64,000 bases of DNA from Cyanobacteriota bacterium (lineage in GTDB: Bacteria; Cyanobacteriota; Cyanobacteriia; PCC-6307; Cyanobiaceae): assembly GCA_046052125.1 (NCBI GenBank), contig JBJOMY010000001.1:608001-672000 (forward strand), given 5' to 3'. The notes under the pieces were generated by a model that was not told where the DNA came from, did no database searches, and worked only from the letters and a program-made list of their open reading frames with translations. Shown piece by piece: positions 35,136 through 59,658 of the stretch. The position numbers and the translations under genes were made by a program. Position 1 is the stretch's first letter; every line of letters begins with the position of its first letter.

Positions 35136-35248
35136 TCCTGCAGGGTGAAGGCGCAGGCGGCCAGCGGCAACAGCCGCCAACCAACCAGAGGCGCCGGCCT
35201 AGTGAGGGCAGGGGATCTCGGCGGGCTGGGTTCTTCGCGGGGGGAAGG

Positions 35249-36283
35249 ATGGACGGGGGGCCGAAAGGGGCAAGGCTGTTTGCCCCGTTCTGCTGCCGCG
35301 CCGCTGTGCCCATCCAGCTCTCTGCTGCCGTTGTGCCGCCTACGCGGCGGCGGCGCAAGGCCTACAGGCCGCCCGAGATGTTGGTGAACCTGCACGTGTT
35401 GGACCTGATGGAGGTGAGCGGCAGCCAGATGCGTGCCGCCAGCGCCCTCTCGATGCACCAGACCACGGTGAGCCGCAGCTACTGGGACCTGGCCGAGCAG
35501 TTCCGCCTCCAGCCCGCGCGCGGCCCGCGCAAGGTGTGCCGCTGGGGCCTGAGCACCAGCGTGCGCTTCCTGCGGCTGGCAAGCCGTGCCCATCGCCTGG
35601 AGAATGGCCGGCTGCGGCTGGCCAGCGATGCACAGCACATTTCGCTGCTCGAAGGATTGCCCGGGGTGCTGCAGGTGCCGCCCTGCTTCCACCCCGCCGG
35701 CGACTGGGCAACGCTGGTGGCCCAGGGGGTGATCGATGGGGCCCTCGTCTCCTCCCTCTGCCACGACCACGAACTGGCGAGGGGTGAACTGCCGCAGTGG
35801 CCGGGGGTAAAGGTGCAAGCCCTGGGGACGTTGCCGCTGCAGCTGGTCACCGCTCAGCGCTGGGCCGAGGTGTGGGCAGAGCAGGTTGTGGTCCCTGCTG
35901 TCCAGGTGATGCCGCTGCTGCATGAGCAGCTGGAGCCCTGTTTCGGCGAGCTGGAGCGCGCCTCAAGGGCCTGGCAAGACCCGCAGGATTGGCTGGAGCA
36001 GCTCCACCAGCGGCCCGTCGCCGCGCTGGTCTGTCCGGCCATGGCCCCAAAGGACTGGTGGCGTGAGCAGGGTATGGCGCCCGTGGCCCATCAGCTGAAG
36101 CTGCAGGAGCAGTTGTGGTTGCTGCTTCCAGAGGATCTGGAGCCACCGAGGGCAGCCAGGGCGACGCTGCGGGCGATCCAGCGCCGGGCGTTCAGCGCTG
36201 TGGCACGGGGAGATGGAGCACGGCTGGAAGTCCTTGGGTCGGTGGGGAATGAGCCGGAAACTCAGGGCGAGGCGGCGGCATGA
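35249..36283 (+). CDS. LysR-like transcriptional regulator (start uncertain)
   Basis: LHVLDLMEVSGSQMRAASALSMHQTTVSR HTH followed by a substrate-binding-like region. Confidence 0.65.
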   Translation: MDGGPKGARLFAPFCCRAAVPIQLSAAVVPPTRRRRKAYRPPEMLVNLHVLDLMEVSGSQMRAASALSMHQTTVSRSYWDLAEQFRLQPARGPRKVCRWGLSTSVRFLRLASRAHRLENGRLRLASDAQHISLLEGLPGVLQVPPCFHPAGDWATLVAQGVIDGALVSSLCHDHELARGELPQWPGVKVQALGTLPLQLVTAQRWAEVWAEQVVVPAVQVMPLLHEQLEPCFGELERASRAWQDPQDWLEQLHQRPVAALVCPAMAPKDWWREQGMAPVAHQLKLQEQLWLLLPEDLEPPRAARATLRAIQRRAFSAVARGDGARLEVLGSVGNEPETQGEAAA

Positions 36284-36548
36284 GAGACCTGGCTATGGAC
36301 TGCCGAGTCCACATGAGCATGAAACGGCATGAGCCACTGGAAGAACCAGTGCCAAGGATCGGAGCTGAGGCCCAGGCGGCACGGAAACTGCATAGCCATC
36401 AGGCCACAACAATGCGCAGGCTGCATAGTTTTGGCAGTGCCGGGCGGGAGCGGGAGAAGCCAGGCTGCGCCTGGGCTCTGCTGGCGGCAAACTGGTGGAA
36501 GCGTCTACTACCCCCTATGCCAGCCCAGCTGCGACAGGTGGTGCCGCA

Positions 36549-39500
36549 ATGAGCCAGGTTCCGCCTGCTCCCACCCTCAGTAAGGGTTGCGTGGTCCACT
36601 GCCGCAGCCACCACCACCTGGTGGAGGACGTGCAGCCCCCAGAGGACGGTGGCGACACTGTGGTGCGCCTGGCCTGCCTGGACGACGACGCCAACGGGCA
36701 GATCACCGAGGTTTTCTGGGAGCGTGAGGTGGATGCCCGTGTGCTGGGGCAGAGCACCTGGGAGACGATCGGTCAGCGGGGGTTCGATGACCCGCGAGTG
36801 TTCTCCAGCTACCTGCACACGCTGCAATGGAACTGCGTGACGGCCACCGATCCGGGGCTGTTCCAGGCGCCGCTGCGGGCGGGCATCGATGTGAAGCCCT
36901 ACCAGCTGGAGCCGCTGCGCAAGGCCCTGCGGATGCCGCGGGTGGCTCTGTTCATCGCCGATGACGTGGGCCTGGGGAAGACGATCGAAGCAGGGTTGAT
37001 CACGCGTGAACTGCTCTTGCGCCAGAAGGCGCAGCGCGTGGTGGTGTTGGCACCTCCGTCGGTGGTGCTGCAGTGGCAGGGCGAGATGGAAAGCCGCTTC
37101 GGCTTGCCGTTCCAGGTGATGAACCGCGAGTACGTATCGCGGATGCGGCGTGAGCGGGGCTGGGGCATCAACCCCTGGGCCACCCACACCCGCTTCATCC
37201 TCAGCCAGGCGCTGGTTCGCAACGAGGACTACGCGGGGCCATTGCGCGATTGGCTGGGGGATGGCGAGAGGGCCCTGCTGATCCTCGATGAGGCCCACAA
37301 CGCGGCACCCGCCAGCGGCTCCAAGGTTGCCGTCGATTCCAAGCTCACCCGGGCCGTCCGCAGCCTGGCCCTTTGCTTCGAGCACAAGCTGTTCCTCTCA
37401 GCCACACCCCACAACGGCCACAGCAACAGCTTCTCCGCATTGCTGGAAATCCTTGACCCCACCCGCTTCTGTCGCGGGGTGCCTGTGCGCAACAAGGCCG
37501 ACCTCGAGCCGGTGCTGGTGAGGCGCCTCAAGGAAGACCTGCGCCGTATCGGCGAGGAGCTGCCCAAGCGCGAGGTGGTGCCTGTGGTGCTTGAGGGCCT
37601 GGATCCCTCCACCGCTGAGCTGGAGCTGGCCCGCCAGCTCAAGGACTACCGCAGCCTGCGGGAACAAAGGCTCAAGGGCGCAAGCAGCAAACAGCGAGCC
37701 GCCGAGCTGCTGGTGGTCACCAACCTGCAGAAGCGGCTGCTCAGCTCGATCGAGGCGTTCCACCGCACCCTGGGCGTGCATTGCGACACGCTGCGGCGGC
37801 GCGATGCTGGCGAGCGGCTGCGCACGGCCCGCGACCCCCAGCAGCTGAAACTGCTGCAACAGGGCATCGACGGCGACGACGATCGCGCCGAGGCCGATGA
37901 AGACAGCGTGGAGCGGGAAGCCGAGCAGGAGCATCGGCTGGCAGTGGCTACTACCGAACTGGGCGCAGGGCCCGAGGAGTGGACGCTGCTCAAGGACATG
38001 CAGCGCATCAGCGAGCGTTCGCGGTACGAGCCCGACGCCCGGATCCACTACCTACGCCGCTGGATTCAGCAGCACCTCTGCCCGGATCTCGGGCAGGAGG
38101 GGGCCCAGTGGAACAACGAGCGGCTGTTGATCTTCACCGAGTACGCCGACACCAAGCGCTGGCTGCAGGAGCAGATCGAATCGTTGATTGCCGGCAGCGA
38201 CCGGGAGCGGGAACGCATCGCCACCTTCCACGGCGGCATCGGCGATGAGAAACGGGAAGCCCTAAAGCGCAGCTTCAACAGCCCGCCCGATCAGGATCCC
38301 CTTCGCATCCTGATCGCCACCGATGCCGCCCGCGAGGGGGTGAACCTGCAGAACCACTGCCGTTACCTCTTCCACTTCGACGTGCCCTGGAATCCGGGGC
38401 GGATGGAGCAGCGCAACGGCCGCATCGACCGCACCCTGCAGCGCGCTCCGGAGGTGTTCTGCCATTACTTCGTGCTGGCCGACCGCGAAGAAGACCGGGT
38501 GCTCGACGTGTTGGTCAAGAAGACCGAGGAGATCCGCAAGACCTTGGGTTCCCTGCCGCCGGTGGTGGTGGGGCGGCTGAATGAGCTGTTGGCCAAGGGG
38601 ATCAATCCCACCGCCATTCAGGAAGTGATGGAGCAGATCCAGGGAGTGGATCAGGAGGAGGGCTACAAACGCCGCCAGGCCCTGATCAACCTGGAGCTGG
38701 AAGACAACAGCCGCGAGCGGGAAGACGAACTCCGCCAACAGGTAGCCCGGCTTGAGAAGGCTCTGCAGAAGTCAGAAGACTGGCTCCACTTCAGCAGCGA
38801 TCTCTTCCGCGATGCGCTCAACACCAGCCTGCGGGTCAGCGCCCAGGGGAGCGGAGCAACACCGCAGCTGAAACCCAGGGATCCCGCGGCCGCGGAGGCT
38901 GATCCCGAGCGAGCCGAATGGATCTTCCCAGCGGCCGATGAGCTTCCCGGCGGTGAACAGAGCTGGGGAGATGTGCTGGATGCGCTGCGGCGCCCGCGCC
39001 GCCCCGGCGAAAAGCTCTGGGAGTGGCGGCGCACCACGGCACCCCAGCCGGTGGTGTTCAAGGACCCCAAGGAGGTGAATGCCGATCGGGTGCACCTGCA
39101 TCTGGAACACCCCCTGGTGCAGCGGCTGCTCAACCGCTTCCTGGTGCGCGGGTTCCAGGGTGAAGAGCTCAGCCGGGCTGCGGTGATCGCCACCCATGAC
39201 GACACGGCCAAGCTGATCCTGTTGGCACGCATGTCGCTCTATGGCCACGGCGCTGCTCGCCTGCACGATGAAGTGCTGGAGCTCGTGGCCGAATGGGACC
39301 CGGCCGATCCAGCCCGGCGGCTGAGGGTGTTGAACGCCACCAAGACCGACATGGCCCTGGCCGACCTGGAAACCAGCCTGCGTGAACGTCTCCCATCGGT
39401 GGATGAAATCATCCAGCGCCAGCTGCGCGGCCAGTTACCGGCCGATGTGGCCCAACTCAAGGACCGGCTCGAATCCCTGGCAGCCGATCGGGCTGAGCGC

Positions 39501-39824
39501 GCCAAGGGTCAGCTGAGCAAGCGCGCCGACGACGAGGCCAACGCTTTTGTGAAGGTGCTGCAGGAGCAGCGGGAGCGGATCCTCAAGACCCGCACCAAGC
39601 ACGACAGCGAGTTCGAGCAGCTGGCCTTCGGCTTTGCCGACCAGGAGCTGCGCCAGCTACGCGACAACCGCTCCTACTGGGACAAACGGCTGGCGCGCAT
39701 CGAGCGGGATCTGGAACTGGAGCCGGCTGCCATCCGGCGCACCTTTGAGGTGGCCACGGCCCCTCGGATTGAGCCCGCCGGCGCGATTGTGCTCTGGCCG
39801 CTGCAGGCAGGAGGGCAGGCCTGA
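36549..39824 (+). CDS. drmD: DISARM SNF2-like helicase DrmD
   Basis: IADDVGLGKT, DEAH, SATPHNG, EGVNLQ, MEQRNGRIDR; first gene of the DISARM gene order. Confidence 0.92.
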   Translation: MSQVPPAPTLSKGCVVHCRSHHHLVEDVQPPEDGGDTVVRLACLDDDANGQITEVFWEREVDARVLGQSTWETIGQRGFDDPRVFSSYLHTLQWNCVTATDPGLFQAPLRAGIDVKPYQLEPLRKALRMPRVALFIADDVGLGKTIEAGLITRELLLRQKAQRVVVLAPPSVVLQWQGEMESRFGLPFQVMNREYVSRMRRERGWGINPWATHTRFILSQALVRNEDYAGPLRDWLGDGERALLILDEAHNAAPASGSKVAVDSKLTRAVRSLALCFEHKLFLSATPHNGHSNSFSALLEILDPTRFCRGVPVRNKADLEPVLVRRLKEDLRRIGEELPKREVVPVVLEGLDPSTAELELARQLKDYRSLREQRLKGASSKQRAAELLVVTNLQKRLLSSIEAFHRTLGVHCDTLRRRDAGERLRTARDPQQLKLLQQGIDGDDDRAEADEDSVEREAEQEHRLAVATTELGAGPEEWTLLKDMQRISERSRYEPDARIHYLRRWIQQHLCPDLGQEGAQWNNERLLIFTEYADTKRWLQEQIESLIAGSDRERERIATFHGGIGDEKREALKRSFNSPPDQDPLRILIATDAAREGVNLQNHCRYLFHFDVPWNPGRMEQRNGRIDRTLQRAPEVFCHYFVLADREEDRVLDVLVKKTEEIRKTLGSLPPVVVGRLNELLAKGINPTAIQEVMEQIQGVDQEEGYKRRQALINLELEDNSREREDELRQQVARLEKALQKSEDWLHFSSDLFRDALNTSLRVSAQGSGATPQLKPRDPAAAEADPERAEWIFPAADELPGGEQSWGDVLDALRRPRRPGEKLWEWRRTTAPQPVVFKDPKEVNADRVHLHLEHPLVQRLLNRFLVRGFQGEELSRAAVIATHDDTAKLILLARMSLYGHGAARLHDEVLELVAEWDPADPARRLRVLNATKTDMALADLETSLRERLPSVDEIIQRQLRGQLPADVAQLKDRLESLAADRAERAKGQLSKRADDEANAFVKVLQEQRERILKTRTKHDSEFEQLAFGFADQELRQLRDNRSYWDKRLARIERDLELEPAAIRRTFEVATAPRIEPAGAIVLWPLQAGGQA

Positions 39825-42800
39825 TGCCACCGCGCGCCCCTGGGGTTCACACCCACGAGGAATGGAAGGGCATGGCCCAACCGGTGGGCCTGGTGGTCGA
39901 GCCTGTGGTGCTCAACCGTCTGGGGATCTTCCCGGAGAGTGCCACCACTGTGCTGGCCGACTGGCAGCAACGGTTGGAGCAACTGCTGGAAGACCAGCCC
40001 GTTGGTGAGCAGTGGCTGAGCGTGGCCCCCAGCTTTGAGCTGTTCTGCCAGGAGGTGCTGGCCTGGCAGGACGGCGACCTACGCAAGCCCGAGGAGCTCC
40101 CGGCGCCGGTGGCCGTGCACCTCGACGACTACGACGAGGTGCTCCGCCCCGATTGGTTCGTCCCTGAACCCAGCCAGGGGGATGGAGCGCTCAAGGCCCA
40201 GCTGCTGGTGCAGGAGCTGCCCCTGGGTGCGCCCTTTGACGCTCTGCCAAAGGGCCTGGATGGCCGGCGGCAATGGGAGGCCACACCCCAACAGCGCTTG
40301 GAGCGGCTGCTCAAGGAAAGCGAGCACCCGATTGGCCTGCTCTGGAATGGGGTGGCTCTGCGGATGGTGTACGCCCCACGGGGCGAATCCAGCGGCCACC
40401 TCACCTTCCCGTTGGAGCCGATGACCACGGTCGACGGGCGACCGATGCTGGCGGCGCTGCAGATGCTGCTGGGGCCGGATCGCCTATTTGAAGGCGGGGC
40501 CAGCAACACGCGCCTGCGGCCGCTCATGGAGCAGAGCCGCAAAGAACAGAACGAGGTGAGCACCCGCCTGGCCGAGCAGGTGCTCGAAGCCTTATGGATC
40601 CTGCTGCGCGGTTTTGATGCCGCAGGACTGGAGGCCAACGACCCCAGCCACATCTATGGCGGGTTGATCACCGTGCTGCTGCGGCTGGTGTTCCTGCTCT
40701 ACGCCGAAGACGAAGAGCTGATGCCCACCGATTCGCTCTACGGCCAGCACTACAGCGTGGGCGGTCTGGCGCTGCGGCTGCGGCAAGACCGGGCCGATTA
40801 CCAAAACGCTATGGAAGGCCGGCGCGGTGCCTGGGCCACGCTGCTGAGCCTGTTCCGCCTCGTCTACGACGGCGGCGGCTCCACGGAGGCGTACCTACCA
40901 GCCAGGCACGGCGATCTGTTTGATCCGGATACTTACCCCTTCCTTGAAGGCCGCACGGCAGATACGTCGTACAGCGATGGGCCGTTGACCGCTGTGCCGG
41001 CCATCAGCGACGACGTGGTGGAACAGGTGCTCACAAAGCTGTTGCTACTCGACGGGCAGATCCTCAGTTATCGGGCCCTGGATGTGGAGCAGATCGGCTC
41101 GGTGTACGAGGGGATCATGGGCTTCATGGTGGAGAAGGCCACCGGTCCCAGTGTGGGGATCACCTACCGGCCACCGCGCCAGAAGATCACGATCACCGTG
41201 GTTGTGAATGCCGAGGAGCTTCTTGCCCAGGCGGAGGCCAAACGGGTGAACTGGCTCGACGAACGGGCGGGCGTCAAACTGAAACTGTCTGCCCCCATCG
41301 TTCGGGCCTTGAAAGAGGCCCGCAGCCACGAGGATCTGGCGGCAGCGCTGGGCAACCGCCTGTCATCCCACACTCCGCGGGTGTTGCCGGCTGGTTCCCT
41401 GGTCCTGCAGCCCACGGCGGAACGGCGACGCAGCGGTAGCCATTACACGCCGCGAGCTCTCACCGAGCCGATCGTGGCAGAAGCCCTTCGGCCCTGGCTG
41501 GAGCGCTGCAACGGCAAACCCACCGCCGAACAGGTGCTGGCACTCAAGTTGTGTGATCCGGCCATGGGGTCGGGTGCCTTCCTGGTAGCCCTCTGCCGCT
41601 ATCTGGCTCACTGGCTGGTGGCGGCCTGGGAAGACCCAGAGGGTCCAGGCTATCCGCCCGAGTTCAGGAAGGAATGGGACAAAGACCTCTATGCCCGCCG
41701 CCTAATCGCCCAGCGCTGCCTCTACGGGGTCGACAAGAACCCCTTTGCGGTGAATCTGGCCAAGCTCTCGCTTTGGCTGGTGACCTTGAGCAAAGACCTG
41801 CCGTTCACCTTTGTGGACCATGCTCTGAAGTGCGGCGATTCGCTGGTCGGCTACTCGGTGCAAGAAATCCAAGCGGCGATGAAGGAAGTACAGCTGGGCT
41901 TCTTAAATCAACAAAACGAAGTATTTACACAGATGAGCCTGGCCAGGCGCGAATGCTTTGCCGTCGATAGCTTCACCGACGACGGGTACGATCGAAAGAA
42001 GGAATTGCTACAGCAGCAGATCCAGGCCAGCGATGGCCTCCGACAGGCTGGCGATCTAATGGCTGCTGCGTTCTTTGATGCGCCAAAGACAAAAGACCGA
42101 GCCGATAAGCAACAGGTATATTTGGCACTCATGAGTGGTGCATTTAACGATGACGAACTGCAGGATTCGATTCAGGAGATCCGCAGGCGCCTAGCAGGCG
42201 GAGACAAGGGAGTCAAGCCGTTTCACTGGCAGCTTGAGTTTCCAGAAGTTTTCTGCCCCGAGCAAGGTGGATTCAATGTAATTATTGGCAATCCGCCGTT
42301 CGCTGGATCAGTTACACTCGCCAAATCTTCTCACGTCGCATACCCAGACTGGCTTAGATCGCGACACTTTGGCTCTGCAGGCAAATGCGACCTGGTCGCG
42401 TTTTTCTTTCGTTCTGCCTTTAGCCTGCTTTGCCGAACTGGTGCATTAGGCTTTATTACAACCAATACAGTCTCACAAGGAGACACGAGGAGGTCAGGCC
42501 TTTTTCATATTCTTCAAGAAGATGGATGGATCTACGCCGCCCGCAAGCGTGTGCCGTGGCCAGGCATTGCTGCAGTTGTGGTGAGCATTGTTCATATATC
42601 AAAAGCAATCAGGCCAATTCCAAAACTCAATGGAAGACAAGTAAATAGGATCAGCGCTTATCTTTTGCCTGGAAAGATTGATGGATCTCCACTTTATACA
42701 GGCGGCCTCGGCCAGGCCATAAAGGCAGGTCTTGGGAGCAAACCTAACGGCAAAGGCTTTATTTTTTCAGATAGAGGCTCTGGCTTCTTGCCCGTTAGTG

Positions 42801-43777
42801 AAGCACATTTAATTATTTCTAGACATCCAGAGTGCAGGAATGTAGTCAAGCCTTACATGGGCGGAAGTGAGCTAAACAAGAGCCCAAGCCTGACAAGCGA
42901 TAGGTGGATAATCGACTTCGGTGATTTATCAATGCAAGATGCCATGAAATATGAAGAACCATTTGCCTTGGCTGCCGAACGAGTCAAACCATTTGTTAAA
43001 AGAAAGAACTGGTGGCAGTTTGAGCATCGAGCAAAAGATATATTGCTTCAGATTAGGGAGCATGCGCTTTCCATGGTGTGTGTGGTCGCAGAGACAAGCG
43101 ACACGTTTGCGCCCGTGATCGTAGATTCGAGCAATTGCTTCTCAAATAAAGTGGTCATCTTTACAACTGACGATCACGCAGCCCTAGGCATCTTGCAATC
43201 TCGATTTCACGAATATTGGTGCCGAACAGTTTCTTGCACACTTAAAGATGACCTTACATATGTACCTTCCGTTTGCTACGATACTTTCCCTGTTCCGTTT
43301 ACATGGAACCAGGATGAGCACTTAAGACTTCTAGCCAGCAATTTTGATCAAAAAAGGCTTTCATGCCTTAGAAGCATGGGGATTGGCCTTACATCCTTAT
43401 ATAACAAAATTCACAATCCACGGTGCGGGGACAATCAAGTTGCCGAGCTGCGGATCGCCTTGGATGAGATTGATTATTACCTGGCCTCTTTGTATGGATT
43501 TGATGAGCTAGATCTAAAGATTGGGTTTTACGAGTTTTCCTCTGATGACATGTCAGAAGAGGAAGCAGATAGTGATGAGGATTCGTGTAGTGATTGGCGC
43601 TATGGCTGGTCCGAAAGCTCTATCGATGAAGCTATTTCTATGCTTATGAGCATCAACGAGAGAATTGGCGGGGCAGCTCACAAAGCAAGGGCAAACAGCT
43701 TGGGCGCAAATCTGCAGAAAAAGGAGTCGCGAACAAGCAGAAGTGCTTCAGTTTCTCAACTTTCATTTGATACGTAG
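39824..43777 (+). CDS. drmMI: DISARM class I N6-adenine methyltransferase DrmMI (Eco57I-like)
   Basis: GSHYTPR, CDPAMGSGAFL, YGVDKN, IIGNPPF; C-terminal TRD. Confidence 0.9.
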   Translation: MPPRAPGVHTHEEWKGMAQPVGLVVEPVVLNRLGIFPESATTVLADWQQRLEQLLEDQPVGEQWLSVAPSFELFCQEVLAWQDGDLRKPEELPAPVAVHLDDYDEVLRPDWFVPEPSQGDGALKAQLLVQELPLGAPFDALPKGLDGRRQWEATPQQRLERLLKESEHPIGLLWNGVALRMVYAPRGESSGHLTFPLEPMTTVDGRPMLAALQMLLGPDRLFEGGASNTRLRPLMEQSRKEQNEVSTRLAEQVLEALWILLRGFDAAGLEANDPSHIYGGLITVLLRLVFLLYAEDEELMPTDSLYGQHYSVGGLALRLRQDRADYQNAMEGRRGAWATLLSLFRLVYDGGGSTEAYLPARHGDLFDPDTYPFLEGRTADTSYSDGPLTAVPAISDDVVEQVLTKLLLLDGQILSYRALDVEQIGSVYEGIMGFMVEKATGPSVGITYRPPRQKITITVVVNAEELLAQAEAKRVNWLDERAGVKLKLSAPIVRALKEARSHEDLAAALGNRLSSHTPRVLPAGSLVLQPTAERRRSGSHYTPRALTEPIVAEALRPWLERCNGKPTAEQVLALKLCDPAMGSGAFLVALCRYLAHWLVAAWEDPEGPGYPPEFRKEWDKDLYARRLIAQRCLYGVDKNPFAVNLAKLSLWLVTLSKDLPFTFVDHALKCGDSLVGYSVQEIQAAMKEVQLGFLNQQNEVFTQMSLARRECFAVDSFTDDGYDRKKELLQQQIQASDGLRQAGDLMAAAFFDAPKTKDRADKQQVYLALMSGAFNDDELQDSIQEIRRRLAGGDKGVKPFHWQLEFPEVFCPEQGGFNVIIGNPPFAGSVTLAKSSHVAYPDWLRSRHFGSAGKCDLVAFFFRSAFSLLCRTGALGFITTNTVSQGDTRRSGLFHILQEDGWIYAARKRVPWPGIAAVVVSIVHISKAIRPIPKLNGRQVNRISAYLLPGKIDGSPLYTGGLGQAIKAGLGSKPNGKGFIFSDRGSGFLPVSEAHLIISRHPECRNVVKPYMGGSELNKSPSLTSDRWIIDFGDLSMQDAMKYEEPFALAAERVKPFVKRKNWWQFEHRAKDILLQIREHALSMVCVVAETSDTFAPVIVDSSNCFSNKVVIFTTDDHAALGILQSRFHEYWCRTVSCTLKDDLTYVPSVCYDTFPVPFTWNQDEHLRLLASNFDQKRLSCLRSMGIGLTSLYNKIHNPRCGDNQVAELRIALDEIDYYLASLYGFDELDLKIGFYEFSSDDMSEEEADSDEDSCSDWRYGWSESSIDEAISMLMSINERIGGAAHKARANSLGANLQKKESRTSRSASVSQLSFDT

Positions 43778-43867
43778 TCCTCGATGGTACACATCCATTG
43801 CGGGAGGGGCTTGGGCGATTACAATCGGATCAGTCAACCAGGGCAAGTACAGGGGCTCGCATGGAGC

Positions 43868-44347
43868 ATGGCTAAACCATACACTCTTCATCCAGAGAAT
43901 AGCCCGTGGATCTGCATGTTTTCTCCCGAAACTTGGGAGATATGCAGGAATAACGGATATGCGCACGCTGCATTTACAAAGGCACGGGGCAAAAGTGCCG
44001 GCCGCATAAGGGAAGGCGACATCCTATTCGCATACGTATCTAAGAGGATGGCAATTGCAGGTGCTCTTATCGCAAATAGCGCCTGCGCATTTGATGATGA
44101 ATTCTCTGTTTATGGCCCCCCCGGCCAGTTTCCTTATCGACTTAGCTGCCAGCCATTGGCAATCCTTCCGCTAAACGAAGAGATTAAGCTTGCGGATCAT
44201 TTTCATCGTATATCAATTTTCAGTGGACTAAGGGATGGGCGATATTGGCCTGTTTGCCTTCGAAACAGCCCCAGAGATCTCAGGAGACGAGATTCGGACT
44301 ATTTGTTGTCATTATTTCCCGATTCGTATTTTGAAGCTTATGCTTAG
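43868..44347 (+). CDS. EVE (PUA-like) domain protein
   Basis: PWICMFSPETWE...RIREGDILFAYVS...AIAG...FPYRL; low GC. Confidence 0.7.
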   Translation: MAKPYTLHPENSPWICMFSPETWEICRNNGYAHAAFTKARGKSAGRIREGDILFAYVSKRMAIAGALIANSACAFDDEFSVYGPPGQFPYRLSCQPLAILPLNEEIKLADHFHRISIFSGLRDGRYWPVCLRNSPRDLRRRDSDYLLSLFPDSYFEAYA

Positions 44348-44629
44348 CTGTGTATCGCTGACTAGCCGTCCCAATTCCAGCAGGCATGGCTTCGCGAGCT
44401 ATGCCAGTGCTGATTCCGCAGAGACCGGTTGTCAACTCATCATGTGCGTACTACAAAGCCATGAACTTCTGAGCGCGAATAATGTGACCAGAATAATACT
44501 CCACCTTACATGTCATCTCTATTGCTACTACGGAATTGTTCATAATGCCCTAGGTCGCTGCTTTTCAAGCCTGAATTGCTTCTTGCGCGCCAGTGAAGAA
44601 TCTCAACGCGATGTCCCCTTATTCTGAAT

Positions 44630-46357
44630 ATGGCCAAAGCAGAGGCCACTGTAGAAGAGCTCGTTAGCAAGATCGAGCGCGGCGAGCTGCGTTTGCCAGA
44701 GATGCAGCGGCGTTATGTCTGGCGATCCAGCAGGGTGCGAGATTTGCTTGATTCCCTGTATCGCGGCTATCCCTCTGGCGCCATCCTGATCTGGGAAACC
44801 GATGAGTTGGTGCCACAGCAGGCCTTTGCGGTTGAGCAGCAATCAAACCCCTACGCCAAGACCCAGCTGCTCCTCGATGGCCAGCAGCGGCTCACCTCCC
44901 TCTCGGCCGTCATCCGCGGCAAACCGGTTCAGGTGAATGGTCGTGTTCGCCCGATCGAGTTGCTCTTCAATCTCGAGCACCCGGAGGCCCTCCCCTTCGT
45001 TACTGAAGTGGATGACAACACCATCGACGCACCCGAGTACAGCGATGACGGGGAAGAGCCGATCGATGAAGAGGCTGATGCCACAGAGGATGAACTGCAG
45101 AAGCGCTTCGACAAGATGACCTTCGTGGTCAGCACCCGCAAGCTCGAACAGCTTCCTCAATGGGTGAAGGTCAGCGAGGTGTTTGCTGGAACGCATGACA
45201 ACAATTACTTCCTCAAGCGAGCTGGCATCACAAGTCTGGATGATCCTCGCGCGGAGATTTATACGCAACGGCTCAACCGCCTCAAGGACATCCGTAAATA
45301 CGTCTACCGGATGGATGTGCTGGAGCGCACCCTCTCCTACGACGAGGTCACCGAAATCTTCGTGCGGGTGAACTCCCTTGGAGCCAAGCTCCGCAGCTCC
45401 GACCTCGCCCTCGCTCAGATCACCGCCAAATGGCGCGGATCCCTGAACGTGTTCCAGGCCTTCCAGGCCGATTGCTCGAAAGATGGATTTGAGCTCGACC
45501 TGGGCCTGCACCTCAAAAACCTGGTCGCCCATGCCACGGGTCAGTCCCGCTTCCTCACCGTTTCCAACCTCACCCTGGATGAGTTGAAGAGCGGCTGGGA
45601 CGACGGTTGCCGGGGCATGGAATTCGCGATCAATTTCCTGCGCAGCAATGCCGGCATCACCAGCCCCGCACTTCTGGCCTCGCCATTCCTGCTGATCAGC
45701 TTGGGCTTCTATGGCGCCCAGCGCTCCTACAAGCTCTCGGCCGGGGAAGAGAAAGGCCTACGCCGTTGGGTGTTGCTCGCCAATGCCAAGGGCCGCTACA
45801 GCCGGGGCTCCAGCGAAACCCTCCTCGATCAAGACCTCAAGATCCTCCGCGATGGCGGCGGCTTCCAGGAGCTGCTGGATCGGCTTCGCACCCAGGTGGG
45901 TCGATTGGATGTCACCCCAGAGGAGCTGGAAGGCCGCAATCAGCGCAGCGCCCTGTTCAAGACAATGTTCCTGGCCTTTCGAGCTGCCGACGCCCGCGAT
46001 TGGCACTCCAACCTGGTCATCGCTCTCAGCCATGTGGGCAATGCCCACCAGTTGCAGTTTCACCACATCTTCCCCAAAGCCGTTCTCAAGAGCACAGCCA
46101 CCACCCGGGAGACCGACGACATTGCCAACCTTGCCTTCATCAGCGGCAAGGCCAACCGCAAGATCAGTGCCAAGGAACCTGCCGCCTACTTCCCTGAGGT
46201 ACGAGAGGCCAATGGGGAGCAGCCCTTCAAGAGCCAGTGCATCCCCACCGACCCGGATCTCCTCACTGTTGAGCGCTACAAGGCGTTCCTGGCGGAGCGG
46301 CGGCGATTGATCGCTGAGCGGCTGAACGAATTTCTCGGCAGCGGGCAGGAGGCGTAA
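44630..46357 (+). CDS. GmrSD-like protein (DUF262 plus C-terminal HNH/DUF1524-like domain)
   Basis: LPEMQRRYVW, DSLYRGYPSG, LLDGQQRLTSL, IFVRVNSLG; FHHIFPK...IANLAFI...ANRKIS. Confidence 0.88.
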   Translation: MAKAEATVEELVSKIERGELRLPEMQRRYVWRSSRVRDLLDSLYRGYPSGAILIWETDELVPQQAFAVEQQSNPYAKTQLLLDGQQRLTSLSAVIRGKPVQVNGRVRPIELLFNLEHPEALPFVTEVDDNTIDAPEYSDDGEEPIDEEADATEDELQKRFDKMTFVVSTRKLEQLPQWVKVSEVFAGTHDNNYFLKRAGITSLDDPRAEIYTQRLNRLKDIRKYVYRMDVLERTLSYDEVTEIFVRVNSLGAKLRSSDLALAQITAKWRGSLNVFQAFQADCSKDGFELDLGLHLKNLVAHATGQSRFLTVSNLTLDELKSGWDDGCRGMEFAINFLRSNAGITSPALLASPFLLISLGFYGAQRSYKLSAGEEKGLRRWVLLANAKGRYSRGSSETLLDQDLKILRDGGGFQELLDRLRTQVGRLDVTPEELEGRNQRSALFKTMFLAFRAADARDWHSNLVIALSHVGNAHQLQFHHIFPKAVLKSTATTRETDDIANLAFISGKANRKISAKEPAAYFPEVREANGEQPFKSQCIPTDPDLLTVERYKAFLAERRRLIAERLNEFLGSGQEA

Positions 46358-46362
46358 CAGCC

Positions 46363-49300
46363 ATGGAGTCCAATCCGTCCCCTCTCATCCAGGATGAGTC
46401 CTCACCAGAGGGCCACCCCCTGACCTCCAACGCCACAAGCGCTGCCGTCCGTGACCAGCTGATTCGGGCCCTGGAGCTCGACCTTGTGGGGCCCACCCCC
46501 GCCCTGCTGGCGGAGCTGGATGCCGAAGGACGAGGCGAGGAGGCATCTGAGCTTCGAGAAGAGCTGCTCGATCGCCCCCCCAACCGCTGGTACCAGACCG
46601 GTTTCCTGATCCCCAGCGAAACCAGCCTCGGAGATCGCGCTGACGATGCAGCCGACGACGAGTTCGCCGGCCTCGATGGCCAGAACCTGTCGCCCAAGCG
46701 CAAGAGCAACGCCAGCGGTGATGACACCGGCGCCAGTGAAGCCGGGCCGGCGCGGCGGGTTTTCTTCACCTGCTCCGTTGGCTTGAGCCTTCTCATCCCG
46801 CCAGCCACCGGGCTGGAGGTCACCGTGCATTGGGCCGTCTACAAGCCCACCGCTCCGCCAGAAGACAGCAAGGCCGACGAGGCCTGGTTGCGCGAACCCC
46901 ACTCCGAGCCACTCAGCCTCCCGGCAGAGCTGTTTGATCCGAACGGCCGATCAGCCCAGTCCAAGGAGGTGCCCGGCAGCGATGGCCTGCTGCTCCGCTG
47001 GCACCTGAGACCTGCCCCTGCAGATCAGGGCTACCCCCCTGGAGCCGTGGCCGTGAGCCTGTTCCTCACCAACGAACGCAGCTTTGAGGGTCGCAGCGCG
47101 GAAGACCGCGACCGCGCCAGTGCCTACCAGGTGCAGCTGGATGTGGCCTGCAGCGCCGGCTTCCTGGAACGCCGCGACCCCCGCGCCGCTGATCTGGCGA
47201 TCAACGCCAACGATTGGGACCATCGCGTTAACAATCTCCACTACCGGGGTGACCACGAATTCGCGGTGGGCCACAACATCTCTGTGGCACCACGGATAGA
47301 CGCCAACGGTGCTTGCCACCGGATCAGCACCACCTGGCTGCCCCAGGCCACCGTGGAGAAGGTGCTGCCGAGGGTTGGGGAGCTGGAAGCAGCCGGCCTG
47401 GCGCTCTCGATGCCGGATCTGGATCGCCTTGCCGGCGAAGGGGCTGGCCCCGTTCAGACGGCATTGCGTCCTCTTGTGAAGGCCTACACGGACTGGATCG
47501 AGAAGCAGGGCGCTGCCGCGGCCAAGGCCAGCCCGCAGCAACAGGCCACGGCCACGGAGCTCCTGCAGGAAGCCACCAAGCAGGCCCGGCGGATCGAGCG
47601 TGGCATTGAAGCGCTGGAGAACGAGCAGGTGCGGCTGGCCTTTGCGATCGCCAACCGCGTGATGGCCGCCGCTGCACGTCAGCGATTTGGGGTGATGCGG
47701 AACCAAAACCCCGACGCCGTGAAGCCCCAATGGCGGCCATTCCAGCTCGCCTTTGTGTTGATGAACCTTGTGGGGATGGCCGAGCCCACCGATGCCGACC
47801 GCGACACCATCGACCTGCTGTTCTTTCCCACCGGCGGCGGCAAGACCGAGGCCTACCTGGGTCTGGCGGCCTACACCCTGGTTCTGCGCCGGCTGCGCCA
47901 TGGGGGGTCGATCGAGTCGGCCGGCATGAGCGTGCTGATGCGCTACACCCTGCGCCTACTCACCCTCGATCAGCTCGGCCGCGCCTCCACCTTGATCTGC
48001 GCCCTCGAGCTAGAGCGCCGCAAGGATCCCAAGCTGCTCGGCCAGTGGCCATTCGAGATCGGCCTGTGGGTGGGGCAGAGCGGCACCCCCAACAAACTGG
48101 GTCACAAAGGCGATGGCGACGACAACAGTGCCCGCTCCCGCGTGCTGGCCTGGAGTGGCGGCGACAACAAGCCGATTCCGATCGACAACTGCCCTTGGTG
48201 CGGCACCGAGCTGGGCAAAGCATCCCTGCACGACGATCGCCCAGCGGTGGCCCGCGGGGTGTTCCGCCTGCTCCCCGATGCGGATCAGCCCAAGGAGCTC
48301 AGGGTCTGCTGCCGCAACCGAGCGTGCCGCTTCTCAGGCGACAGCACCCTGCCGCTGGTGGCTGTCGACGAGATGCTCTACCAACGCCTGCCGGCCTTCG
48401 TGATCGCCACGGTCGACAAGTTCGCCGCCCTGCCATGGGTGGGAGCCACCGGAAAATTGTTCGGCCGCGTCTCCCATGCCCAGCCAGGCAAGGGCTTCTT
48501 TGGTCCCAGTGATGGAACCGAGCAGGCCGGAGCACCGCTGCCCCATGGCCTGGAACCCCCCGATCTGATCATCCAGGACGAACTGCACCTCATCTCCGGC
48601 CCACTCGGCTCGATGGGCGGTCTCTATGAAGCCGTGATCGATGAACTCTGCGCCCGCCAGGTGGAGACATCCGCTGGTGTGCAGACCGTGCGGCCCAAGA
48701 TCGTGGCCTCCACCGCCACGGTGCGTCGCGCCAGCCAGCAGATGCAGGCTCTGTTCGGCCGGTGCAGCCCACCGGCCGTCTTCCCGGCCCCGGGCCCCGA
48801 TCGGCGCGATTCCTTTTTCTCCTACACCGCCTCAGTGTCAGAAGCGCAAGGGAGGATCTACGTCGGCGTGTCAGCACCGGGTCGCAACATCAAGGCCTTG
48901 CTTCTGCGGGTGGGACTGGCCTTGATGAGCACGGCCCAGAAGCTCTACGCCCAGGCCGAAAAGGAACGGAAGGCCCGCGAGAAACGAGGCGAAGACAAGG
49001 GACCCAACCCGGTTGACCCCTACATGACCTTTCTGGGTTACTTCAACACCATCAAGGAACTCGGGATCACACGCCGCCTGCTGGAAGAAGAAGTCACCTC
49101 CCTGCTCACCACCTACGACCAGCGCCGTCGTCTCAACGAAAGCAGCACTCGCTACGCCCGCCGCAAGATCGCCAATGAACCCCTCGAGCTCACCTCACGG
49201 GTGCCCACCTCAGAAGTGAGCACGACCAAGGCCCGCCTCGAACTCAGCTTCGACAACGAGAAGCAACGGGTCGATACGGCTCTGGCCACCAACATGATCT

Positions 49301-49980
49301 CGGTCGGTCTCGACATCAGCCGCCTCGGCCTGATGGTGATGCTGGGCCAGCCCAAGACCACAGCCGAATACATCCAGGCCAGCAGCCGCGTCGGCCGCGA
49401 CGACCAGCGCCCTGGCCTGGTGGTGGTGCTGCTCAACCCCAACCGACCGCGCGACCGCTCCCACTACGAGCGCTTCAGCTTCTGGCACTCGGTTTTCTAC
49501 CGCGATGTGGAAGCCACCAGCGTCACCCCTTGGTCGTCCAGAGCCCTGCAGCGGGGGCTGCCGGCCATCACCGTGGCCCTCGCCCGGCACCTCAGCCCCG
49601 CGCTCAGCTGGGCCAAGGATGCAGGAAACGCTGAGGCGATCGATGCCATTCAGGCGGAGGTTGCCCAACGGCTCGGTGATCGGGCCCGCCGCTCCGCCCC
49701 CAGCAAGGCGCTCAGCGAACACACCGAGGCCGAGGTGCGCCAGCGGGCCATGAACCTGCTCGACAAGTGGATCCGCATTGCCCGCGACAATGGCGGCCTC
49801 CTTCAGTACGGCCGTGAGGCGGGTGAAGTGGCCCCCCTTCTCCATACCCCGCTGGACCCCGATCTCAAGGAGCTCAAGGCCATGGAGCAGGAGTTCCTGG
49901 CCAACTGGAGCCTGCGCGATGTGGAGCCCAGCGCCGCGCTGATCCGCCAACGCCCCGATGGCGATGGGGAGGTGAGCTGA
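46363..49980 (+). CDS. drmA: DISARM helicase DrmA
   Basis: FPTGGGKTEAYLG, RYTLRLLT, QDELHLISGPLG, ATNMISVGLDI, YIQASSRVGR. Confidence 0.95.
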   Translation: MESNPSPLIQDESSPEGHPLTSNATSAAVRDQLIRALELDLVGPTPALLAELDAEGRGEEASELREELLDRPPNRWYQTGFLIPSETSLGDRADDAADDEFAGLDGQNLSPKRKSNASGDDTGASEAGPARRVFFTCSVGLSLLIPPATGLEVTVHWAVYKPTAPPEDSKADEAWLREPHSEPLSLPAELFDPNGRSAQSKEVPGSDGLLLRWHLRPAPADQGYPPGAVAVSLFLTNERSFEGRSAEDRDRASAYQVQLDVACSAGFLERRDPRAADLAINANDWDHRVNNLHYRGDHEFAVGHNISVAPRIDANGACHRISTTWLPQATVEKVLPRVGELEAAGLALSMPDLDRLAGEGAGPVQTALRPLVKAYTDWIEKQGAAAAKASPQQQATATELLQEATKQARRIERGIEALENEQVRLAFAIANRVMAAAARQRFGVMRNQNPDAVKPQWRPFQLAFVLMNLVGMAEPTDADRDTIDLLFFPTGGGKTEAYLGLAAYTLVLRRLRHGGSIESAGMSVLMRYTLRLLTLDQLGRASTLICALELERRKDPKLLGQWPFEIGLWVGQSGTPNKLGHKGDGDDNSARSRVLAWSGGDNKPIPIDNCPWCGTELGKASLHDDRPAVARGVFRLLPDADQPKELRVCCRNRACRFSGDSTLPLVAVDEMLYQRLPAFVIATVDKFAALPWVGATGKLFGRVSHAQPGKGFFGPSDGTEQAGAPLPHGLEPPDLIIQDELHLISGPLGSMGGLYEAVIDELCARQVETSAGVQTVRPKIVASTATVRRASQQMQALFGRCSPPAVFPAPGPDRRDSFFSYTASVSEAQGRIYVGVSAPGRNIKALLLRVGLALMSTAQKLYAQAEKERKAREKRGEDKGPNPVDPYMTFLGYFNTIKELGITRRLLEEEVTSLLTTYDQRRRLNESSTRYARRKIANEPLELTSRVPTSEVSTTKARLELSFDNEKQRVDTALATNMISVGLDISRLGLMVMLGQPKTTAEYIQASSRVGRDDQRPGLVVVLLNPNRPRDRSHYERFSFWHSVFYRDVEATSVTPWSSRALQRGLPAITVALARHLSPALSWAKDAGNAEAIDAIQAEVAQRLGDRARRSAPSKALSEHTEAEVRQRAMNLLDKWIRIARDNGGLLQYGREAGEVAPLLHTPLDPDLKELKAMEQEFLANWSLRDVEPSAALIRQRPDGDGEVS

Positions 49981-51902
49981 TGCCGCGTCAGCAGACCAGC
50001 CGTCCCCAGGGCGAGGTGCGTCACAGCCAGCTGATCACCACCTATGGCCCAGGCGCCATGGTGGATTTGCCCGATTGCTCCGTTGTGATCGGTGGCCTCA
50101 ACTTCTGGATGTATGGCCCCGATCAGCCCCCCGAGGAGATTGATGAACCGCGCCTGATTGCCAAGCTGCGCCAGAGCCTCAATGTCGGCTCCCTGCGCTT
50201 GCGCAAACCCCCTATGCATGACGTTGGGCCCGGGGGCCAGAGCCGTCCCGGCGGCATCCGCAGTCCTGAGTTCCCCAACTGGTTCGTGGCCCAGCTGGAT
50301 CGAACAGAGACCTTTGAGGGCAAGACCTATCGCAGCCGGCCGCTGGTGGAGGGCGCCCGCCTCGACAAGCGCAAGTACGTCGATGCGGATCGGAAGGCAC
50401 ATCGCGTCGTACCGGTGCGCTTCGTGCAGAGCTGCCCCAACGGCCATCTCAGTGACATCGACTGGCGTGAATTCGTGCATCGCGGCAAAACCACCTGCCG
50501 GGCCACGCTTTGGCTCGATGAGGCCGGGGCTGGCAACGACTTCACCGAGATCTTTGTGCGCTGCTCCAATCCAACGTGCATGGAGAAGCACGGGCGCCGG
50601 CAGCTGTCGGAGGCCAAGCAAAAACTCAAGGGCGACGATGACGAAAGGCCCGCGCTCGGTTTCTGCCAGGGGCATCGGCCCTGGCTGGGACCGTTCGGCC
50701 AGGAATTCTGCGACAACGGCAAAGGCAAGGGCGGCAGTTATGCCAATCGCCTGCTGGTGCGGTCTGCCAGCAACGCCTACTTTCCCGAGCTGATCTCGGC
50801 GATCTCCATCCCCGAGCCGATCGACGCTGTGCGGGAGGTGATCAGCAATCATCTCAAGGCCTTTGAGAAGATCACCAGCCCCGCCAAACTCGAAGTCTGG
50901 CTGGAGGACTACGCTCCCGACCACATCAAGGATCCTCTCGCTGGTACAGCGCCTGCTGAGATCTTCGAGGCTCTCGAAGCCATCCGTGGTGGTGAGGCTG
51001 CTCCCGAGAAGACCGAGGCCCTCAAGCGACAGGAACTTCGGGCCTTGGTCGGCCCCATCGATGGGCTTCAGCGCGGCAGGGGCAGCAGCCGCTTCGAAGC
51101 CGAAAATCTGGATCTATCGGCCAAGCCAGCCTGGTTTAAGCAGCGCGTCAACCGGGTGTTGAAGGTTCACCAGCTGAGAGAAGTGATGGCCCTGCTCGGC
51201 TTCACCCGTCTGGAGCCCGTGGTGAGCCAGATTGATGGTGATCCCCTGGATCTGGGCGTGAAACGCGCCAAGATCGATGTAAAGGAAGAAACCTGGCTGC
51301 CGGCCGTGGAAAATCTCGGGGAAGGCATCTTCCTCAGCTTTGATCCAGACGCGATCCGCACCTGGATCAAGAGCGCTGGAGCTGCGCAACAGCTCTCCAA
51401 ACACCGTGACGCCTTCAAGATCTGGAACAAGGAGCACGGGCTCACGGAGGACAAGTTTCAGTGGCCTGGCGGCGCCTACGTGATGCTGCACAGCCTTGCC
51501 CATCTGCTGATCACCGAAGCGGCTCTGGATTGTGGGTATGGGGCCTCAGCGATCAAGGAGCGGATCTACGCCTTCGATGACATTGGCTACGGCATCCTTC
51601 TCTACACCGGAGGCAGTGGATCCGAGGGTTCACTCGGAGGACTGGTGGGCCTGGCTGATCGCATCGATGACCTGCTGGCGATGGCGCTCGAGCGAGCCGC
51701 CCTGTGCTCCAACGACCCCTTCTGCGCCAGCCATGACCCCAACAGCGAATTGGAGAAGCGTTATGCGCATGGCGCCGCCTGTCATGGCTGTCTGCTGATC
51801 GCCGAAACCAGCTGTGAACGCCGCAATGAGTTTCTCGATCGAGCCCTCGTCGTGCCCACCCTGATTCAACGCGATGCGGCCTTCTTCACCGATGGGCCCT
51901 GA
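49980..51902 (+). CDS. drmB: DISARM DrmB (DUF1998)
   Basis: RHSQLITTYGPGA; LHSLAHLLI; CSNDPFC...ACHGCLLIAETSCE. Confidence 0.95.
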   Translation: MPRQQTSRPQGEVRHSQLITTYGPGAMVDLPDCSVVIGGLNFWMYGPDQPPEEIDEPRLIAKLRQSLNVGSLRLRKPPMHDVGPGGQSRPGGIRSPEFPNWFVAQLDRTETFEGKTYRSRPLVEGARLDKRKYVDADRKAHRVVPVRFVQSCPNGHLSDIDWREFVHRGKTTCRATLWLDEAGAGNDFTEIFVRCSNPTCMEKHGRRQLSEAKQKLKGDDDERPALGFCQGHRPWLGPFGQEFCDNGKGKGGSYANRLLVRSASNAYFPELISAISIPEPIDAVREVISNHLKAFEKITSPAKLEVWLEDYAPDHIKDPLAGTAPAEIFEALEAIRGGEAAPEKTEALKRQELRALVGPIDGLQRGRGSSRFEAENLDLSAKPAWFKQRVNRVLKVHQLREVMALLGFTRLEPVVSQIDGDPLDLGVKRAKIDVKEETWLPAVENLGEGIFLSFDPDAIRTWIKSAGAAQQLSKHRDAFKIWNKEHGLTEDKFQWPGGAYVMLHSLAHLLITEAALDCGYGASAIKERIYAFDDIGYGILLYTGGSGSEGSLGGLVGLADRIDDLLAMALERAALCSNDPFCASHDPNSELEKRYAHGAACHGCLLIAETSCERRNEFLDRALVVPTLIQRDAAFFTDGP

Positions 51903-52714
51903 TGGCAGCGCCCTTCCCCAAGCTGAGCACCGCGGAACTGGAAACCCTGCTGGCGGCACTGGAGTCCCAGCACGGCGGTACCGGCTTTCTCGCCGACAGC
52001 CTCGCTGATCCACCGGCTTTCCTGGCCAGGATTGGTCTGAATGCTGGCCCCGTTTCACTGGTCGCCTGGCTGGAGCGTTGGTGCGCTGCAGGCGGCAGTC
52101 AGGAGGCTTTACGCATGACCGTTCAAGCTCTGTTGGATCAGCGAAGTCGTGAAGCGCTCGCTCACTCCATCGAACTGGTGTGGTCGGGCCCCGATGCCGG
52201 AGCAGGCGCGATCACCCGCGATCAGTCAGTGCTGATTCGTCAGTTGGTGGAACGTGCCGAACAGCGCCTGTTGCTCACCACCTACGCCTTCTACAAGGGG
52301 CCGTTCATCAAAGCGTTGTTCGAGCTGATCCGCGAGCGCATGGTCGCGTTCCCAACATTGCAAGTTTGCATGGTCTGCAACATTCAGCGTGATCGCGGAG
52401 ACACCTCCTCTCCCGAGGCCTTGATCCGCAAGTTTCAGCAACAAACCTGGTCCCGCCTTTGGCCCGAATCTCCAGCACCTTCCTTGTTCTTTGATCCCCG
52501 ATCCCTCTCTCTTGAAAGAGAGAAGGCTGTCTGTCACGTCAAAGCGGTGGTGGCCGATCAAGAGGTGCTTGTGACCAGCGCCAACCTCACCGATGCCGCC
52601 CAGCTCTCCAACTTCGAGCTTGGCCTCCATCTCAGAAGTTCTGCCCATGCCGATGACGTCTGGGACCATTTTGATCGCCTGATTCAACAGGGCCTCTTGC
52701 AACGCGTTGGTTGA
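51902..52714 (+). CDS. drmC: DISARM phospholipase D-like nuclease DrmC
   Basis: ELVWSGP; HVKAVVAD (HxKxxxxD); TSANLT; NFELG. Confidence 0.92.
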   Translation: MAAPFPKLSTAELETLLAALESQHGGTGFLADSLADPPAFLARIGLNAGPVSLVAWLERWCAAGGSQEALRMTVQALLDQRSREALAHSIELVWSGPDAGAGAITRDQSVLIRQLVERAEQRLLLTTYAFYKGPFIKALFELIRERMVAFPTLQVCMVCNIQRDRGDTSSPEALIRKFQQQTWSRLWPESPAPSLFFDPRSLSLEREKAVCHVKAVVADQEVLVTSANLTDAAQLSNFELGLHLRSSAHADDVWDHFDRLIQQGLLQRVG

Positions 52715-59637: not shown

Positions 59638-59658
59638 ACACAGCCAGCCTGCTTTGCC

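Follow-up and report, generated by a model that had tools for sequence, protein, structure and literature searches.

Do two unrelated genes that stand side by side inside a multi-gene defence operon form a functional pair, or has one of them only come to lie beside the other? The question is raised by a 64,000-nucleotide stretch of a Cyanobiaceae genome (contig JBJOMY010000001.1, positions 608,001 to 672,000; hereafter the window, to which all coordinates refer unless a locus is named), which carries an operon of DISARM, the defence island system that is associated with restriction-modification. Between drmMI and drmA this operon holds two further genes, a small open reading frame (ORF) whose predicted product has the EVE/UPF0310 fold and a gene for a DUF262 protein that resembles the nuclease BrxU. 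An earlier note on this DNA had read the two as a nested modification-dependent module. We favour, with a probability of roughly 0.6, a DISARM operon with a long-carried BrxU-like nuclease, in which the EVE gene would be strain-specific cargo and not one half of a conserved EVE-plus-nuclease module.

Seven co-oriented ORFs on the + strand (36495-52714 in the ORF list) encode DrmD, DrmMI, the small ORF product, the DUF262 protein, DrmA, DrmB and DrmC, in this order. With drmD and drmMI ahead of the drmA-drmB-drmC core, the locus agrees with the published definition of class 1 as drmD-drmMI-drmA-drmB-drmC (accessible text of 10.1101/2021.12.28.474362); the class I operon is complete, and its host is a picocyanobacterium of the Cyanobium type.

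The embedded nuclease and its neighbours in related loci

The DUF262 gene (44630-46357, +, 575 aa, GC content 0.599) has a Pfam GmrSD_N match of 1.2e-28 (101 bits against a cut-off of 33.2) and matches the PADLOC HEC-05 models (best 4.4e-49). HEC-05 is a BrxU-type GmrSD-like defence gene, and embedded genes in DISARM are described in the accessible text of Payne et al. (10.1101/2024.01.29.577857). Among solved structures, a sequence search with phmmer recovered BrxU alone (7p9k, 4.1e-14); the match is in two parts and takes in both ends of the protein. The AlphaFold2 (AF2) model of the nuclease is poor (mean predicted local distance difference test score, pLDDT, 59.8, with residues 1-109 below 50), and only the ranking of BrxU was used: its chains are Foldseek hits 1-3 (3.4e-9 to 1.4e-7), followed by SspE. 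In an alignment of 29 sequences from many phyla (A3), DGQQR (aa 83-87), QFHHxF (aa 476-481) and the residues H478, H479, N500 and N509 are invariant. The second motif reads FHHIFP in the window (FHHIF at aa 477) and aligns with the region of BrxU whose motif is given as DHIYP in the same text of Payne et al.; the C-terminal part of the nuclease aligns with BrxU.

The claim that a BrxU/GmrSD-type nuclease lies between drmMI and drmA, as an analogue of the combination of bacteriophage exclusion (BREX) with BrxU, is thus borne out by HEC-05, GmrSD_N, DGQQR and the BrxU match. In the earlier label DUF262/HNH the first part is confirmed by GmrSD_N; for the second, the Pfam GmrSD_C match at the C-terminus stays below its cut-off (17.1 against 23 bits), yet FHHIFP and the two asparagines are invariant. 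Relatives of the nuclease at E<=1e-10 number 6906, and the mean column identity of A3 is 79% across phyla, which is unusually high and therefore suggests strong constraint, frequent recent transfer, or both. Pairwise, the cyanobacterial proteins are 66-74% identical to those of Planctomycetota, Nitrospirota, Acidobacteriota, Chloroflexota and Pseudomonadota.

Nuclease loci were found 678 times among genome contigs, and the best 80 were fetched and compared, 67 of them with at least 600 bp available upstream of the nuclease gene. DISARM flanks the nuclease in 12 loci, all from picocyanobacteria (Cyanobium, Synechococcus UW140, Vulcanococcus, Aphanothece and others): on both sides in L001, L004, L005, L006, L018, L021 and L022, on the drmA side only in L002, L003, L015 and L019, and on the drmMI side only in L016. 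A tree was built from 70 nuclease sequences, after 11 others had been left out as short or containing a stop; in it the nine full-length DISARM-embedded nucleases, that of the window included, form one clade with support 1.0.

No EVE relative accompanies them. None was found in the 80 nuclease loci (tblastn, E<1e-5); the profile of the EVE family (A2, 19 sequences) had no match at E<=10 among the 13,193 ORFs of these loci; and EVE, ASCH, YTH or PUA domains at E<=1e-5 were present in 0 of 127 small ORFs within 1.5 kb of the nuclease in the other 68 of these 80 loci. The recurrence of both genes in DISARM loci, on which the earlier note had let its proposal depend, is therefore seen for the DUF262 gene and not for the EVE gene, and the two do not appear as one recurring module. 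In the window itself 282 bp (44348-44629) separate the EVE gene from the DUF262 gene, so that the two are not tightly coupled.

The positions around the nuclease are occupied by a changing set of small defence genes. Before the nuclease, sister loci carry MNT and HepT (L021, L022, L005), HepT and SieB (L018, L022) or nothing (L001, L016); after it they carry AbiEi/AbiEii (L018), PIN (L005), HepT (L002) or STAND-TPR and Fic (L021), and in L004 a PIN gene with a ribbon-helix-helix (RHH) partner lies between drmD and drmMI. We read the nuclease as a clade-conserved second layer within DISARM and the EVE gene as variable cargo.

Two ORF families recur between the nuclease and drmA, one of 293-299 aa (L003:2411-3310, L006:11793-12674, L015:1155-2051) and one of 189-192 aa with a GC content of 0.48 (L002:2862-3440, L005:11728-12297). 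Neither has a Pfam or PADLOC family, and both are candidates for further embedded defence genes. Two sister loci show decay: in L005 codon 71 of the nuclease gene (10001-11707) is an in-frame stop and drmA (13268-16822) is split into two ORFs, and in L004 the nuclease (10001-11802) has an internal deletion that leaves 539 aa, with drmA down to a 59-aa fragment.

Large neighbours of the nuclease outside DISARM were sought with PADLOC in 54 of the 70 neighbouring ORFs of at least 520 aa. In the other 68 loci the nuclease stands beside genes of type I restriction-modification (RM) systems (L028, L037, L040, L046, L066, L068, L074, L077), type III RM systems (L057, L062, L069, L072), type IIG or DrmMI-like methylases (L017, L048, L070, L079), HmaA (L063) and a DrmD (L056). 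The nuclease homologue of L056 stands between a BrxL-like fragment on its upstream side and a DrmD-type helicase on its downstream side, and in L007, from Nitrospinota, a BrxR-like HTH_11-WYL-WCX protein (1342-2304) is encoded directly upstream of the nuclease homologue.

From the protein families we infer a division of labour, as we infer all biochemical activities and any partnership of the EVE protein. DrmMI would place N6-methyladenine on its motif and thereby mark self; DrmD, DrmA, DrmB and DrmC would act on entering DNA without this mark; and the nuclease, with a DUF262 domain binding nucleoside triphosphates and an HNH-type domain, would cut DNA that escapes by means of modified bases. 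The EVE gene would have arrived in a 2.77-kb low-GC segment that also replaced the specificity-bearing half of DrmMI, and its slot would be the place that other small defence genes take in sister loci.

The small EVE-fold protein and its possible partners

The small ORF (43868-44347, +) encodes 159 aa, or 187 aa from the longest-ORF start at 43784. Neither Pfam nor PADLOC matches its product directly, even when hits up to E<=10 are admitted, and the EVE fold of the window protein is shown indirectly, through the profile of its family, the predicted structure and related proteins. A single-sequence search of the Protein Data Bank (PDB) gave PH1033 at E=0.015, and the A2 profile raised this match to 2e-11 over positions 10-147, nearly the whole length, with MJECL36 at 5.3e-7. 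The AF2 model (pLDDT 74.8, predicted template modelling score 0.75, residues 113-136 poor) has as its top Foldseek hits 2p5d, 1wmm and 2hd9 (1e-6 to 8e-6, TMq 0.62-0.67); the hits named are MJECL36, PH1033 and Rpa0253, then YTH domains, VcaM4I (6yex, E 1.1e-3) and 2eve. In the Atlas, 23 of 30 matches fall in EVE clusters, with a top score of 0.97.

Six protein clusters, its own included, are closely related to the small ORF (the five others are P0002-P0006), and this family has 30 invariant columns in six sequences of 34-86% identity. An Arg-rich stretch at the C-terminus is conserved in the family and falls in the low-confidence part of the model (residues 113-136). The EVE profile found 595 proteins at E<=0.001 among 1.84 billion representatives. 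Domains were scanned in 80 of the 150 relatives listed, namely the best-scoring and most of the long ones, and PF01878 (EVE) was present in 35 of these at E<=1e-3, of which 21 reach the cut-off of 23 bits. The identification of the small ORF as an EVE protein in the earlier note is upheld by the A2 profile against the PDB, by Foldseek, by PF01878 in the relatives and by the Atlas, with no Pfam match of the protein itself. By sequence and model, the small ORF encodes a protein with the EVE/UPF0310 fold. It belongs to a divergent subfamily, and fusion to defence nucleases is frequent among its relatives.

Such fusions to GmrSD_N were found in three of the 80 scanned relatives (P0028, P0038 and P0114), one of them also with HNH, and the alignment of P0038 to the window nuclease extends over the full length (20% identity, E 1e-19). 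The other fusions were to Mrr_cat (two), an AAA_15/21 ATPase (one) and DndB (one). P0018 (1874 aa, 33 stretches) was disregarded as an EVE relative, being a repeat protein. A longer, frameshifted gene at 43784-44627 was considered and dropped, the EVE homologues being stand-alone proteins of 138-182 aa. The EVE protein had no match among plasmids and phages, the matches in a viral fold library were PUA-like but weak (a single one at E<=0.001), and of 25 pattern matches to the EVE alignment A1 in a scan of genome contigs none was confirmed as a relative.

The EVE protein is most likely a modified-base reader that would give the island a further sensing function. It may serve the nuclease or DISARM, act by itself, or have no function here. 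The earlier note had suggested that it supplies specificity in trans, and in the fuller form of this idea it would be a specificity subunit that binds a flipped-out modified base and recruits or licenses the nuclease, much like the single-chain EVE-nuclease enzymes. The EVE gene lies 282 bp upstream of the nuclease gene on the same strand; its relatives include the GmrSD_N fusions just described, with Mrr_cat, an ATPase and DndB in others; the alignment of P0038 with the window nuclease runs end to end; and rare EVE-GmrSD fusions are in print (accessible text of Bell et al. 2020, PMC7641849). Set against this are the absence of EVE relatives from all 80 nuclease loci and of PUA-like domains from all 127 small neighbours, the high conservation of the nuclease across phyla in loci where no EVE protein is encoded, and the occupation of the same slot by unrelated genes in sister loci. 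According to the accessible text of the review PMC12707154, moreover, BrxU restricts phages with modified cytosine without BREX and cuts modified DNA in vitro, and no separate reader is mentioned there. Finally, the composition and recombination history of the EVE gene go with drmMI and not with the nuclease gene (see below). We consider a specificity subunit for the nuclease unlikely, and the recurrence data give no support to a reader in trans. Partnership readings as a group stay alive because of the EVE fusions and the literature on stand-alone EVE proteins beside methylase systems, and are lowered because EVE and nuclease do not recur together. Among the partners that can be named for the EVE protein, the adjacent nuclease comes first as a candidate, though weakly supported.

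Exchange of the DrmMI specificity half together with the EVE gene

Comparison with the sister loci at the DNA level places the EVE gene in a segment of its own. The window matches L001 at 89-90% over 36567-41850 and 44619-50129 (89% up to 41850), and from the left break, which lies between 41850 and 42306 depending on the locus, to 44618 no DNA match was found in any of the 80 loci. The left break is at 41850 in L001, L005 and L018 and at 42252-42306, at the NPPF motif, in L004, L006, L016, L021 and L022; this motif lies at aa 823 of DrmMI (nt 42290). On the right the break is at most 11 bases before the nuclease start, where "TTCTGA" is retained, as at the end of drmMI in L001 and L016, so that the last ~11 bases of the spacer are the last codons of the old drmMI kept at the junction.

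The segment 41851-44618 thus measures 2.77 kb, is low in GC and spans the C-terminal half of DrmMI, the EVE gene and the spacer. The N-terminal part of drmMI (39824-41850, +) is kept in sister loci and has a GC content of 0.65; the swapped C-terminal half (41851-43777, +, aa 676-1317), which holds NPPF and the MmeI-type target recognition domain (TRD), has 0.472, the EVE gene 0.471 and the spacer 0.482, against 0.662 for both drmD and drmA. The C-terminal half of DrmMI has two close protein relatives (P0276 and P0277, 88%), all others being at most 46% identical. One recombination introduced the new DrmMI specificity half together with the EVE gene, because the unmatched segment, the break points, the GC content and the rarity of relatives are shared by both. 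No donor was found: the 2.77-kb cassette matched plasmids and phages only over ~100 bp at the methylase motif, in two plasmids.

One possible reading is that the EVE protein serves DISARM. Having come with the DrmMI half, it would read a modified base for DrmD/DrmC or DrmAB, or relate to the mark of the linked DrmMI allele. Both parts lie in one 2.77-kb segment of one composition, both are rare (two close relatives for the DrmMI half, five other clusters for EVE), and archaeal stand-alone EVE proteins recur with a methyltransferase, DUF499 and an SNF2-helicase-nuclease of the PD(D/E)XK or PLD type, and with type I RM, according to the accessible text of PMC7641849. Physical linkage alone, however, explains the joint arrival, and an EVE gene is absent from all ten sister loci in which 600 bp or more are available ahead of the nuclease gene, so that DISARM works without it. 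A fusion of EVE to DrmMI or another Drm protein was seen in none of the 80 scanned relatives, and the accessible text of Bell et al. does not mention DISARM. A service of this kind seems to us quite improbable. The variant in which the DrmMI specificity half and the EVE gene travel as a writer-plus-reader cassette, one recombination re-programming both the self motif and the base that triggers a nuclease (the BrxU-like enzyme or DrmC), is to us likewise quite improbable.

The same data might instead suggest a passenger from the donor DNA that has no role in the island and is either intact but idle or decaying. The EVE gene has a foreign base composition, a promoter scan gave no convincing candidate, and embedded genes do decay in sister loci (the stop at codon 71 in L005, the internal deletion in L004). 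The spacer downstream of it (44348-44629, 282 bp, GC 0.48) is featureless: there is no family or regulatory signal, Rfam gave one chance-level match and no family above chance, and promoter-like sites (2 against 1.5 expected) and terminator-like sites (1 against 0.9 expected) are as frequent as in shuffled sequences. An ORF at 44235-44627 was rejected as a gene, having no family and Atlas scores below 0.85, and the spacer was therefore treated as non-coding. Against an idle passenger stand the intact EVE ORF, its conserved family with 30 invariant columns in six sequences at 34-86% identity, and the fusion of its relatives to defence nucleases and ATPases; we hold this explanation to be of low probability.

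Several points nevertheless weigh against seeing the EVE gene as cargo that is independent of the nuclease. The absence test runs one way, in that the nuclease can do without EVE, and the reverse dependence is not addressed by it. It covered the nuclease loci; if all genes of the EVE clusters P0002-P0006 were to precede such a nuclease, a lineage-specific EVE-nuclease partnership would stand. The co-occurrence counts rest on the best 80 of 678 nuclease loci. The EVE-GmrSD_N fusions in three of 80 relatives, with P0038 aligned over the full nuclease, are a classical hint of functional linkage, and the two window genes, adjacent and on the same strand, are compatible with co-expression. The low GC content common to the EVE gene and the DrmMI half signifies joint arrival, not independence from the nuclease.

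The host operon, its surroundings and known systems

A DISARM operon with a long-carried nuclease and a strain-specific EVE gene remains the favoured explanation, and the host genes are themselves well supported. The SNF2-like helicase gene drmD (36495-39824, +, 1109 aa; 36495 is the longest-ORF start, and 36549 in the same frame is also a possible start) matches PADLOC DrmD at 2.6e-298 and NCBIfam DISARM_DrmD with 1003.5 bits against a cut-off of 610, with Pfam SNF2-rel_dom and Helicase_C. The gene drmMI (39824-43777, +) matches PADLOC DrmMI with E=0 over aa 9-1306, with Pfam Eco57I, MmeI_Mtase and MmeI_TRD. Downstream of the nuclease follow the helicase gene drmA (46363-49980, +; PADLOC DrmA 2.7e-268; NCBIfam DISARM_DrmAS 1081.7 bits against 950; Pfam Helicase_C), drmB of the DUF1998/MZB type (49980-51902, +; PADLOC DrmB 1.1e-77; Pfam MZB; NCBIfam DrmB_fam 569 bits against 240) and drmC, which encodes a phospholipase-D-type nuclease (51902-52714, +; PADLOC DrmC 4.6e-55; Pfam PLDc_2; NCBIfam DISARM_DrmC_I 133.8 bits against 133). 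DrmD, DrmA, DrmB and DrmC thus all pass the curated NCBIfam cut-offs. At 39824, 49980 and 51902 a single base is shared by adjacent genes, and a gap of 5 bp lies between the DUF262 stop at 46357 and the drmA start at 46363. The ORF coordinates agree with the gene order, shared orientation and 5-bp gap given in the earlier note, and PADLOC, Pfam and NCBIfam together corroborate its complete class I DISARM locus.

Divergent from the operon lies the gene for a 740-aa protein (32958-35180, -) that combines a kinase-like AAA_33 domain at the N-terminus (1e-17) with a WYL region at the C-terminus (PADLOC WYL 8.5e-11; the Pfam models WYL and WCX do not reach their cut-offs). No other WYL protein was found, and this one may regulate the island or act as its sensor, in the manner of WYL-type proteins; the 5' part of its gene matches DNA upstream of DISARM in L006. 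Directly upstream of drmD are two ORFs of no known family (35249-36283, +, 344 aa; 36280-36552, +, 90 aa). The 344-aa ORF has 38-42% identical homologues at the equivalent position in L006, L021 and L022, and those in L021 and L022 have a weak LysR-type helix-turn-helix (HTH).

Farther away, the window contains two more genes of defence type, for SoFic (16801-17973, -; PADLOC 2e-114) and for a DUF429/PDC-S44 protein (9785-10534, -; 4.6e-10). The island is also flanked on either side by phage-like genes (13200-15415, 19354-20259, 57345-58283 (-) and 62192-62791), of the types DUF3799 exonuclease-like, RecT-like (below cut-off), Siphovirus Gp157, GP7-type capsid and phage tail lysozyme. No tRNA gene was found in the window. 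A second low-GC patch (0.56-0.59; 58001-62000) holds a DUF6338 protein (59659-60288), and in L029 a DUF6338 protein adjoins the nuclease homologue.

Much of this arrangement has precedents in print: embedded GmrSD-like genes (accessible text of 10.1101/2024.01.29.577857), and rare EVE-GmrSD fusions and stand-alone EVE proteins beside RM-like systems (accessible text of PMC7641849). We found no published case of a stand-alone EVE reader in DISARM, and "DISARM" and "EVE domain" are unconnected in the accessible text of PMC12707154. We regard the locus as varying a nested design that is already known from other defence systems, and not as a paired module of a new kind. Its significance lies in the drmMI-drmA interval of picocyanobacterial DISARM, which is a long-lived home of a BrxU-like nuclease and also a swap site for small defence genes, and in the exchange of the DrmMI specificity half by recombination at conserved methylase motifs. 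Nested defence, a picture drawn so far from BREX, Hma and type I RM, hereby comes to include the DISARM of freshwater cyanobacteria that are abundant, and the allelic loci form a natural set in which to ask whether an embedded gene works independently of its host system or together with it.

Compared with the class 1 DISARM that Serratia sp. SCBI carries, the window has all five genes in the same order and orientation, including an adenine-methylase DrmMI with NPPF and an MmeI-type TRD. It differs in having two extra genes between drmMI and drmA, Serratia carrying drmMII instead, and in that its DrmMI is recombinant, with a foreign C-terminal half. As in BREX with BrxU (the pEFER island), a GmrSD-family nuclease is nested and co-oriented in a methylation-based multi-gene system, and two layers have been proposed there, one against unmodified and one against modified DNA (accessible text of Payne et al., 10.1101/2024.01.29.577857, and of PMC12707154). 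Here, in contrast, DISARM takes the place of BREX or Hma as the host, the nuclease and BrxU are distantly related (17-18% identity when the folds are aligned; phmmer E 4.1e-14), and no small BrxR-type WYL regulator was found next to the operon, only the 740-aa AAA_33-WYL protein upstream on the other strand.

The EVE gene can be compared with three groups. Like the stand-alone EVE systems in the accessible text of Bell et al. 2020 (PMC7641849), the window has a small EVE-only protein in an operon with methylase, helicase and nuclease, but it is bacterial, lies in DISARM and is not recurrent in the loci examined. It shares the EVE fold with the single-chain EVE-nuclease enzymes (VcaM4I, an EVE-HNH protein, and the rare EVE-GmrSD fusions), and its own relatives are fused to GmrSD_N, whereas reader and nuclease are here separate genes with separate histories. 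By profile and fold its closest solved EVE relatives are PH1033 and MJECL36, UPF0310 proteins of unknown function, from which it differs in sequence (14-20% identity) and in the Arg-rich C-terminal stretch conserved in its own family.

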